Of a stretch of DNA of 64,000 nt, positions 13,922 to 16,229 are shown one piece after another. The stretch comes from an uncultured Candidatus Binatia bacterium. GTDB lineage: Bacteria > Desulfobacterota > Binatia > UBA9968 > JAJDTQ01. Each line of letters opens with the position of its first letter. The first letter of the stretch is position 1. The notes beneath the pieces are model-generated. The model did not search any database, was not told the DNA's origin, and saw only the letters and a list, made by a program, of their open reading frames with translations. Position numbers and translations under genes: made by a program. Location: contig OZ244070.1 in assembly GCA_965215605.1 (NCBI GenBank), forward strand, positions 3,264,001-3,328,000, in the 5' to 3' direction.

Positions 13922-14686
13922 TCAATGCAGGTTGGCGCCGCCGTTCACCAGGATGGACTGGCCGGTGACGAAGGCGCTCATCTCCGACAGCAGGTACAGC
14001 GCGGTCCCCACCACGTCGTCCGGCTTTTCGATGCGTTGCAGCATGCGCTTGGCCGCGGAGCGCTCGTAGTCCTGAAGGGCGTCCTCGGTGGGCTCCGGCT
14101 CGCTGGCGGTGGAGCCCGGGGCCAGCGTGTTCACGCGGATGTTGTCCGGGCCCAGCTCACGCGCGAGCACACGGGTGAAGCCCACCACCGCCGCCTTCGA
14201 CACCACGTAGTGCATCATGCCGCCGCCGCCGTTGTAGGCCATGTTGGAGGCGATGTTCACGATGCTGCCCTGCCGGCGCTCCTGCATGGCCGGCGCCACC
14301 GCGCGGCTGCACAGCCACAGCCCCTTGACGTTCACCGCCATCACCCGGTCCCACTCGTCTTCGGCGATGTCCTGAAACCCGGAGCGCGTGACCGGCACGC
14401 TCATGAAGACCGCGGCGTTGTTCACCAGCCCGTCGATCCTCCCGAACGCTTCCAGGGCGGCCTCGGCCATGGCCTGGCAGCTCGAGAAGTCGGACACGTC
14501 GGTCTGCGCCCCCAGGGCCTGGCCGCCGCTTCGGGCAACCTCCCGGGCCACGGACTCGGCGGCGTCCCCGTCGATATCCGCGGCCACGGGGATGCCCCCC
14601 TCGCGCGCGATGCCCAGACAATAGGCCCGCCCGATGCCGTTGCCTCCTCCGGTGACGATGACGACTTTCCGATCCAGCAGACCCAT
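13922..14686 (-). CDS. SDR-family oxidoreductase
   Basis: TGGGNGIG, NNAA, YVVSK (YxxxK), IRVNTLAPG. Confidence 0.93.
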   Translation of the reverse strand: MGLLDRKVVIVTGGGNGIGRAYCLGIAREGGIPVAADIDGDAAESVAREVARSGGQALGAQTDVSDFSSCQAMAEAALEAFGRIDGLVNNAAVFMSVPVTRSGFQDIAEDEWDRVMAVNVKGLWLCSRAVAPAMQERRQGSIVNIASNMAYNGGGGMMHYVVSKAAVVGFTRVLARELGPDNIRVNTLAPGSTASEPEPTEDALQDYERSAAKRMLQRIEKPDDVVGTALYLLSEMSAFVTGQSILVNGGANLH

Positions 14687-14884
14687 GATGGTTCCTTTCT
14701 TGGCGGACACGCGTGGAGAACTCTGCGGCAGGTTGCAACCATCGGGATTCCTTGTCAAGGCGCCTCCCGCCGCCCGGACCTCCCGACCACTCCCGGCCCC
14801 CCGGCCCCGGGTCAAGCCCCGCACACCGTTCGCCGCGTGCGCGGCCCTCTTCTACAACCGGCCCCCGATTGCTACGTTGACCCA

Positions 14885-15334
14885 ATGGACCACCGCGCCA
14901 ACCTCCTGGAACGGGACGACGACATTCAGGACCTGATCGCCTCGGTCCGCCGCATCGCCGTCCTCGGTATCAAGACCGAGGAGCAGGCCTTCCAGCCGGC
15001 GTTCTACGTGCCGCGGTACCTGGACCGGGCGGGCTTCGACGTGATCCCCGTGCCCGTGTACTACCCGGACGTGACGGAGATTCTCGGCAAGCCGGTGTAC
15101 CGCCGGCTGGCGGACATCCCCGGCGCGGTAGACCTGGTGAACGTGTTCCGGCGCCCCCAAGACATCGACCCGCATCTCGACGACATGCTGGCCGCGAAAC
15201 CCGCGGGGGTGTGGTTCCAGTCCGGCATCCGCCATCAGGCCGTGGCCGAGGCGCTGGCGCGGGCGGGCATCAAGGTGGTCCAGGACCGCTGACTCATGGT
15301 GGAGCACCGGTCGCCGGCGGCGACCGTCCCGTAA
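14885..15334 (+). CDS. YccU-like CoA-binding protein, probable selenoprotein (UGA=Sec at 15290-15292)
   Basis: RIAVLG, VDLVNVFRR, VWFQSGI family motifs. VVQDR-TGA-LMVEHR matches the family DRC(L/M)xVEH motif; SECIS-like hairpin follows; TAA at 15332-15334. Confidence 0.8.
15308..15326 (+). promoter_or_regulatory. Putative bacterial SECIS hairpin
   Basis: CGGTCGCC-GGC-GGCGACCG perfect stem starting 16 nt after the UGA; loop begins with G. Confidence 0.65.
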
Positions 15335-15350
15335 CCGCTTCCGGGTTGCC

Positions 15351-16229
15351 TTACCCGAGGGCGAGGATCCAACACAGTAACACGGCGAGGGCTGCCACGA
15401 CGCCGATCCTGAGCTGCGCGCGCGGGTCCTCCGGACGGTCCACGGTTGCCGCCAGCAAGCCGCCCACGGCTCCGCCCGCGGCAAACCCCCAGAAATGCGC
15501 CCACAGGTCCGTCCGCTGGCCCCCGGTGCCAAGCATGGCGAGGATCGCCAGTCCCGCGGCCAGCGGCACCCAGGCGCGCCGTCCCCGGACGCCGATGCGC
15601 CGCCGACGCGCCACCTGCGTCCCCCCCAGCACGCCGAGCGCGCCGAAGACCGCGGTGGAGGCGCCGACCGAGATGTGGTCGAAGCCGTAGAACCAGGCGT
15701 TGCAGAGGTTCCCCAGCGCGCCTGCGCCCAGCACCAGGGCCGCCCCGACCCCCGGCCCCTCGGAACGGCACACCGCGGTCAGGAAGAACAGCATGGCCAC
15801 GGCGTTGGAGCCCACGTGGGGCAGATCGGCGTGCAGGGTGAGGGCGGTGATCGTGCGCCACAGCTCGCCGTCGAGGATGAGCTCGGCGGCGGCGCCGCCG
15901 CGGGCGACCCAGCGCACCGTCCCGTGGGTCCAGGCGGCGAAGAAGTGGAACGCCAGCAGGCCCGTCGCGACCGCCGCGCCCGTGTAGAGAGGCGCCTTAC
16001 CTGTCCACACCTCCTCTTCCGGATCGGCGGTACGGGTCTCGCTCTCGTAGTCCCAGAGCTCCGTCACCGCCCGCTCCAGGTGTTGCGAGGGCACCGAGAG
16101 GACCCAGCCCCCGGAAGCGCGCGCCAGACGCGGGCGCAGGCCCTCCGCTTCCAGCACCAGGGCCCACTCCTCGGCCATGCGGAGATTCGGCGTCCTGCGT
16201 ACGATGATTTCCCGTCCTGCCTGCGTCAT
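15351..16229 (-). CDS. Rhomboid-family intramembrane serine protease
   Basis: ELWRTITALTLHADLPHVGSN, GASTAVFG (catalytic Ser), AHFWGFAAG (catalytic His). Confidence 0.9.
   Translation of the reverse strand: MTQAGREIIVRRTPNLRMAEEWALVLEAEGLRPRLARASGGWVLSVPSQHLERAVTELWDYESETRTADPEEEVWTGKAPLYTGAAVATGLLAFHFFAAWTHGTVRWVARGGAAAELILDGELWRTITALTLHADLPHVGSNAVAMLFFLTAVCRSEGPGVGAALVLGAGALGNLCNAWFYGFDHISVGASTAVFGALGVLGGTQVARRRRIGVRGRRAWVPLAAGLAILAMLGTGGQRTDLWAHFWGFAAGGAVGGLLAATVDRPEDPRAQLRIGVVAALAVLLCWILALG

Follow-up and report, generated by a model that had tools for sequence, protein, structure and literature searches.

A putative selenoprotein of the CoA_binding_2 family in Candidatus Binatia, with selenocysteine predicted at the position of an invariant cysteine

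The DNA studied is a stretch of 64,000 nucleotides from an uncultured Candidatus Binatia bacterium (GenBank assembly GCA_965215605.1, contig OZ244070.1, positions 3,264,001 to 3,328,000 of the forward strand), called the window below. A gene on its plus strand (14885–15334) very probably encodes a genuine selenoprotein of the CoA_binding_2 family (CoA, coenzyme A), selenocysteine (Sec, U) being inserted at an in-frame TGA by the ordinary bacterial mechanism. This assignment is drawn from the position of the TGA at an invariant Cys, the family motif that continues downstream, the Sec apparatus of the genome, the recurrence of the codon in relatives and a hairpin that tracks the TGA. Replacement of a Cys by Sec had been proposed for this gene in a sequence-only reading of the window; the machinery, the recurrence, the hairpin, independent assemblies and the invariance of the Cys now lend it support.

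Results and Discussion

Reading frame, family and fold

The open reading frame (ORF) starts with ATG at 14885 and runs for 135 codons to ...IKVVQDR, where an in-frame TGA follows (15290–15292, plus strand; codon 136, U136) in the alignment column that the invariant Cys of the family occupies. Thereafter the frame reads LMVEHRSPAATVP (13 codons, 15293–15331, plus strand; the first six are the end of the conserved family motif) and closes with TAA (15332–15334, plus strand), the whole candidate gene comprising 149 codons and this stop. A hairpin of the selenocysteine insertion sequence (SECIS) type occupies 15308–15326 (plus strand). The layout described in the sequence-only reading (VVQDR-TGA, readthrough into LMVEHR, a hairpin, TAA 13 codons on) proved exact, and the coordinates were confirmed.

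The readthrough product (P0001, 149 aa) matched PF13380 (CoA_binding_2) with E = 3.3e-33 over residues 22–141 and profile positions 1–115 of 116, hence across the TGA; the score was 115 bits (gathering cut-off 22.8), so that the domain is represented as a whole. NCBIfam models gave no match to P0001. The best solved relative was TT1466 of Thermus thermophilus (1iuk/1iul; E = 5e-28), followed by 2duw, PH1109 (2d59) and others; in the PDB relatives the residue aligned with the TGA is a Cys, within a D/N-R-C-L/M/P-M/A motif, and the N-terminus of P0001 agrees with the homologs in the alignment. An AlphaFold model of the readthrough protein (alignment of 21 sequences) had a predicted local distance difference test value (pLDDT) of 95 and was superimposed on 1iuk with template-modelling scores TMq 0.83 and TMt 0.91 and a root-mean-square deviation of 1.5 Å, i.e., a Rossmann-type fold; more distant fold neighbours were the CoA-binding domains of ADP-forming acyl-CoA synthetases and of succinyl-CoA synthetase alpha (TMq 0.55–0.64). 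The full-length PF13380 match and the 1iuk fold bear out the earlier assignment to a YccU-like CoA-binding family; we infer CoA binding by P0001 itself from family membership alone.

In the model, residue 136 stands after the strand 130–132 and directly before the last, C-terminal helix (residues 137–147); as far as residue 140, pLDDT is 97–98 in blocks of 10 residues. According to this model, a stop after residue 135 would remove a well-ordered helix together with the most conserved motif of the family. TT1466 (1iuk/1iul), PH1109 (2d59), E. coli YccU and B. subtilis YneT are likewise stand-alone PF13380 proteins that share domain and length with P0001, and the proteins of the TT1466 type share with it the fold and the C-terminal D-R-C-L-M-V-E-H motif; all four carry Cys, whereas the present gene has a UGA codon and a SECIS-type hairpin instead.

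Among the best 120 database matches of P0001, 104 read VVQDRCLMVEH, 15 are gene calls of 135 residues that stop at VVQDR, and 1 is odd. The Cys of the U136 column is invariant in 21/21 aligned sequences (identity down to 42%), and LMVEHR past the TGA is identical to the motif of the Cys homologs; thus an in-frame UGA at the Cys of the homologs and conserved coding sequence beyond it are both present. These counts and the PDB relatives agree with the earlier statement that the TGA takes the place of the conserved motif Cys.

Recurrence of the TGA codon

Within the genus of the window's genome, 19 of 28 species genomes have the gene; 5 of the 19 carry the TGA form (87–99% identical to P0001, aligned across all 149 residues) and 14 have TGC or TGT. 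A sample of the class (401 genomes) yielded 63 gene-bearing genomes, 21 of them with one TGA at the same place: 5 belong to the window's genus and 16 to a sister family, in which a single genus with 15 gene-bearing genomes supplies 13 of the 16. G779 and G731, two Cys forms among the 63, are flagged unpublished and affect this tally only. The alignments of all 21 TGA forms from the protein search extend to residue 143 or further. Five sister-family genomes were examined, and in 5/5 the TGA is followed by LMVDHRRF.G with a CCGGCG-GUU-CGCCGG hairpin. A search of 401 genomes of the phylum with PF13380 gave matches in 390; the best 150 rows (1652 more lie beyond) contained no TGA and one TAG, and carry no information on Sec forms outside the class.

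A scan of representative genomes for the pattern QDR-TGA-LMVEH returned 3 records, all named "MAG: Candidatus Binatia bacterium". Scanning of JGI metagenome contigs for VQDR-TGA-LMV(D/E) gave at least 120 stretches, and 80 loci were examined; in 80/80 the next two codons, which lie outside the pattern, encode His-Arg, with a stop 8 to 14 codons past the TGA. The codon table shows third-position variation only, which was not counted as evidence since for codons 1–4 of the metagenome loci it arises by construction. In the metagenome contigs L069 and L109, the VQDR-TGA-LMVDHRRLRR end is preceded by just 16 in-frame codons unlike the family, and in L053 the part upstream is out of frame; the three are either gene remnants or assembly frameshifts.

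For a lone in-frame stop the default suspicion is a sequencing or assembly error or a fresh pseudogene of one genome, and nothing specific to this gene was found in its favour. The same TGA is present in 4 other congeneric species genomes, 16 sister-family genomes and at least 120 metagenome stretches, so that the codon is not private to one strain, a point on which the sequence-only reading had made its proposal depend. Contigs of public runs from two other studies also keep the TGA and the hairpin though they differ elsewhere (in one contig 24 differences in 651 nt, none of them in 15253–15339), which shows that the TGA is no assembly error; these independent assemblies carry TGA and not the TGC or TGT that had been named as the contrary outcome. 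Error or fresh pseudogene is refuted by the recurrence across genomes, metagenomes and independent contigs, and its probability is negligible.

Hairpin downstream of the TGA

The hairpin CGGUCGCC-GGC-GGCGACCG (15308–15326) has 8 perfect pairs and a loop of 3 nt; its 5' arm begins at the 16th nt past the TGA, its loop begins 23 nt past it, and the hairpin alone has a predicted energy of −14.0 kcal/mol. The published bacterial SECIS (bSECIS) model, as set out in PMC13188914, comprises a loop of 3–9 nt, a stem of 4–16 bp, a G in the first two loop positions, a distance from UGA to loop of 16–37 nt and an energy of −7.5 kcal/mol or lower; the present hairpin (GGC loop, 8 bp, 23 nt, −14.0 kcal/mol) lies within every one of these limits. 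The same description was applied to the relatives: 64/67 distinct TGA forms passed (median best energy −11.1 kcal/mol) vs 5/24 distinct Cys forms (median −2.35 kcal/mol), and the SECIS-like hairpin looked for in relatives at the suggestion of the sequence-only reading is therefore present in 64/67. A simpler count, that of perfect stems of at least 6 bp, gave 63/67 TGA forms vs 5/24 Cys forms. The loop starts at positions 23–27 in 65/67 TGA forms and begins with G in 64/67. Within the genus, the 7-bp core of the hairpin is identical in 5/5 TGA forms and missing from 14/14 Cys forms.

The stems of other clades are CCGGCG-GUU-CGCCGG, ACCGGCG-GCUC-CGCCGGU, the G/C-swapped ACCGCCG-GCUC-CGGCGGU, and CACCGGCA-GCUC-UGCCGGUG; CGGUCGCC-GGC-GGCGACCG of the window sits three bases further on. 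The clades thus differ in stem, loop (GUU, GCUC, GGC) and register, with G-C/C-G and G-C/A-U swaps. The encoded tails vary (RRFAG, RRLRR, RQLCR, RSPAATVP), and the tails of the Cys forms are variable without a stem. Clade-specific tails with a stem, alongside Cys tails without one, are the pattern expected from selection on an RNA structure and not on the peptide.

Several results weigh against reading the hairpin and the gene in this way. Compared with dinucleotide shuffles, the fold of the entire 56-nt stretch shows no advantage (z = 0.17); in G+C-rich DNA such a value means that stability alone is not evidence, and the comparison of TGA forms with Cys forms was used instead. The bSECIS model is loose, since it also admits 5/24 Cys forms. 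For TGA vs Cys forms, the Fisher p of 3e-12 is overstated because the rows are related. Compensatory covariation between clades is found at two positions only, stems being near-identical within a clade; the stem arms are also coding, so that peptide constraint adds to their conservation; and the GGC loop has no U of the kind often found after the G. The metagenome pattern fixed VQDR-TGA-LMV(D/E), so that conservation of these codons in the metagenome loci is given by construction, and the neighbours of the gene provide no functional hint.

The hairpin was also considered as an intrinsic terminator; this was ruled out, as no T-run follows the stem and a terminator and promoter scan of 14600–15600 gave 0 sites. 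An Rfam scan of 14800–15450 at E up to 10 returned only 4 chance-level matches (E above 5).

Two Cys forms of another family of the class, L177 (G514) and L163 (G065), keep a stem of 6–7 bp at the SECIS position (e.g., CCGGCGC-CUCG-GCGCCGG) with no G at the loop start; these stems may be relics of a reversion from Sec to Cys. In the Cys form L032 (G025), three tandem copies of a 17-nt unit, CAGGAACCGGCTATCCG, immediately follow the stop of the gene; the close relatives L026 and L033 of this form have a single copy of the unit.

Selenocysteine apparatus and the decoding of UGA

The genome (4.06 Mb, 8 contigs) contains tRNA-Sec (selC; 73 bits; ARAGORN anticodon TCA), selA (580 bits), selB (380 bits) and selD (374 bits), all above curated cut-offs; the search for the four genes that the sequence-only reading had called for was thus positive throughout. 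The genes selD, selB and selA adjoin at C1:1984272–1988572 on the minus strand, outside the window (L009, L010, L018). The selD gene itself has one in-frame TGA (...VKAAG-U-AAKLG...), followed by an element with an 8-bp stem and a GUC triloop, the loop beginning 34 nt past the UGA codon; this element shares its minimal architecture with the hairpin of the CoA-binding gene. Further, selB was found in 28/28 genomes of the genus and in 5/5 checked TGA-form genomes of the sister family. The Sec trait is therefore general in the genus, and it is the Cys/Sec state of the CoA-binding gene that varies within it. A genome-wide search for formate dehydrogenase alpha as a second selenoprotein yielded neither a match above the curated cut-off nor one containing an internal stop; the Sec machinery is retained in all 28 species of the genus despite this lack of a formate dehydrogenase alpha match in the window's genome.

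It would also be conceivable that the UGA is read by a near-cognate Trp or Cys tRNA, giving a mixture of truncated and full-length protein, while the hairpin merely slows the ribosome. UGA followed by C is a leaky context in E. coli, and all 67 distinct TGA forms have C right after the UGA: the following Leu is encoded by CTN, never by TTR, although the metagenome search pattern permitted both, and TTG is used for this Leu in 5/24 Cys forms. This usage may also reflect a preferred UGA-C context. Against near-cognate readthrough stand the dedicated Sec machinery in every checked TGA-form genome, the fit of the hairpin to a model of the SelB type and its resemblance to the selD element of the same genome, and the identity of the replaced residue, a Cys, which makes a classic Sec/Cys pair; we regard near-cognate decoding as very unlikely.

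In the mechanism favoured here, insertion of Sec, the small hairpin at 15308–15326 would recruit SelB with Sec-tRNA(Sec) at the UGA (15290–15292), Sec would be inserted at the position of the homologs' invariant Cys, and translation would run through 13 further codons to the TAA.

History of the Cys and Sec forms

Trees were built from the 135 residues before the U/C column only (FastTree, 199 rows; IQ-TREE, 92 rows). Both require 8 Sec/Cys changes, at least 4 of which are forced by well-supported branches. With 98% support, the clade of the window's gene is nested among Cys forms from its own genus; a second Sec clade (9 rows, 99% support) lies among other Cys forms; a third (36 rows, 99% support) comprises 28 Sec and 8 Cys rows, a mixture that suggests reversions to Cys. 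Cys rows inside the large Sec clade (P0127, P0131, P0134, P0151 and P0181, with the RRFAG tail) also point to reversion.

The topology indicates that the lineage of the window switched from Cys to Sec recently and independently of the other Sec clades of the same order. At the site of the stem, ...CACCGGTCGCTG-stop or ...CGCTCGCTGGCGAC... is found in the Cys relatives of the window's gene, and the SECIS appears to have arisen from a short partial palindrome in a variable C-terminal tail; a recent, independent switch within one genus would thus illustrate how a SECIS can originate from such a tail.

These changes bear on the alternative that the TGA is a real stop, the product being a protein of 135 residues without the C-terminal helix and the Cys, and the similarity downstream a relic. 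Gene callers annotate the gene in this manner (15/120 of the best matches of P0001 end at VVQDR, as do 105/120 in a protein search with one Sec-clade form, again as 135-residue calls), and the missing part is short. A relic, however, would decay, and the motif and a similarly distant stop persist in clades 60–65% identical to P0001; the hairpin is associated specifically with the TGA forms (64/67 vs 5/24, by the published bSECIS limits); the separate switches, at least four, all occurred at exactly one codon; and the segment lost would be a confidently modelled helix with the most conserved motif of the family. A real stop is accordingly judged unlikely, and the 105/120 gene calls ending at VVQDR, two of which are named "MAG: CoA-binding protein [Candidatus Binatia bacterium]" by NCBI, show that public annotation truncates the family. 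If Sec is inserted, this is a systematic annotation error, with hundreds of database entries cut at 135 residues and deprived of their most conserved motif.

Putative role of Sec136

Few pointers that can be read from sequence alone identify a catalytic redox residue as reliably as a Sec/Cys pair, and the pair observed here marks residue 136 as the presumably chemically active one. The pointer falls on the invariant C-terminal Cys of an uncharacterised and very widespread family (E. coli, B. subtilis, Thermus, archaea), so that a "putative CoA-binding protein" becomes a testable hypothesis of covalent chemistry with the CoA thiol. Sec136 is the sole Cys/Sec of the protein, and 59/74 readthrough proteins have no Cys at all; with no other Cys in the protein, a redox partner must be external, and the thiol of the bound CoA is the natural candidate.

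Sec136, at the N-terminal end of the last helix, would face the thiol of bound CoA and could cycle through an Se-S(CoA) bond, the protein then being a CoA-linked thiol redox enzyme or carrier and not a passive CoA binder. An Se-S(CoA) intermediate at Sec136 has about an even chance of being correct. CoA-disulfide reductase works via a single Cys-S-S-CoA centre, and in E. coli succinyl-CoA synthetase alpha Cys123 is next to the CoA thiol; a Cys123-alpha mutant of the latter enzyme (2nu9) is, by its title, among the fold neighbours. Alignment of the family with the genome's own SucD (hhalign), made to equate Sec136 with the Cys of succinyl-CoA synthetase, gave no signal (probability 0.2).

A parallel is offered by YneT of B. 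subtilis, a putative CoA-binding protein of 135 residues, which according to PMC8127865 is CoA-linked in spores at Cys126 (peptide TVIMDLC126IK). Cys126 of YneT and U136 share, as matched by motif alone, the same hydrophobic strand, the D-x-C arrangement and the distance from the C-terminus. This match lends indirect support to the suggestion of the sequence-only reading that the residue may act toward the CoA thiol. That the link to the CoA thiol draws on this motif-level match and on general knowledge of related structures counts against the redox proposal. More generally, it is possible, though somewhat doubtful, that the stand-alone YccU/YneT/TT1466 proteins are redox enzymes or carriers, and not passive binders, whose one catalytic Cys or Sec forms an S-S or Se-S bond to the thiol of the CoA that they themselves bind; they might serve as a CoA thiol/persulfide relay or in a step of protein de-CoAlation. 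Were this true, the repeated switches from Cys to Sec in soil and sponge-associated Binatia would signify selection for faster chemistry at the CoA bond, and the protein would be the first selenoprotein with bound CoA as redox partner on a Rossmann scaffold.

Comparison with known selenoproteins

Table 1 of a 2026 inventory (PMC13188914) lists 119 prokaryotic selenoprotein families or subfamilies together with their domain identifiers; neither PF13380 nor any "CoA-binding protein" is among these 119, the sole CoA entries being CoA-disulfide reductase, HgcA and an enoyl-CoA hydratase-like DsbA form. The term for such a family does not occur in the main texts of the deep-Sep paper (PMC12013277) and of a 2022 review, and literature on selenoprotein or selenocysteine together with CoA-binding protein, or on COG1832, gave nothing relevant among the titles listed, nor did the literature searched yield anything on TT1466 or PH1109; supplementary candidate lists may hold the family. 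As far as checked, the gene thus represents an undescribed selenoprotein family using the ordinary bacterial Sec mechanism, and the view in the sequence-only reading that this is no classical selenoprotein family holds against the inventory. The family would add to the prokaryotic selenoproteome a member abundant in soil metagenomes.

In the bacterial selenoproteins catalogued in PMC13188914, too, the UGA takes the place of a Cys codon and a small hairpin, its loop starting with G, stands 16–37 nt downstream; their hosts, like the window's genome, have selA, selB, selC and selD. The "star" families of PMC13188914, in which Sec stands beside the stop, resemble the present gene in that their SECIS is located at the ORF end or past it. 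Most families of that inventory have thioredoxin-like folds with UxxC or CxxU, in contrast to the Rossmann-type CoA-binding fold of P0001 with a lone Sec and no partner Cys. The Sec form of CoA-disulfide reductase (FAD-dependent oxidoreductase, TIGR03385, PMC13188914) is, given the chemistry generally ascribed to this enzyme, a precedent for Sec in an enzyme of CoA mixed disulfides; it has, however, an unrelated FAD/NAD(P) oxidoreductase fold, and P0001 is without a flavin domain. Succinyl-CoA synthetase alpha and the ADP-forming acyl-CoA synthetases are structural neighbours through their N-terminal CoA-binding domain, but these are multi-domain ligases, and sequence similarity to them was undetectable here in the hhalign comparison mentioned above.

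Genomic surroundings

A convergent rhomboid gene on the minus strand ends at 15351–15353, so that the 13-codon extension overlaps no other gene; an EamA transporter gene lies beyond it. Upstream, a short-chain dehydrogenase/reductase (SDR) gene and an amidohydrolase gene are found on the minus strand. The gene studied is the sole plus-strand gene of its neighbourhood and therefore looks monocistronic. A conserved neighbourhood was sought across the 80 metagenome loci, and no consistent functional partner emerged; the neighbours there include an alpha/beta hydrolase, a metallo-beta-lactamase-fold protein, a MoCo-binding dehydrogenase and a methyltransferase, and several of the neighbour clusters are probably spurious ORFs of G+C-rich DNA. 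Near relatives of 14800–15450 were seen in public runs, both those labelled sponge metagenome and those of coded host organisms; JGI metagenome contigs of a different kind are the source of the other Sec clades.
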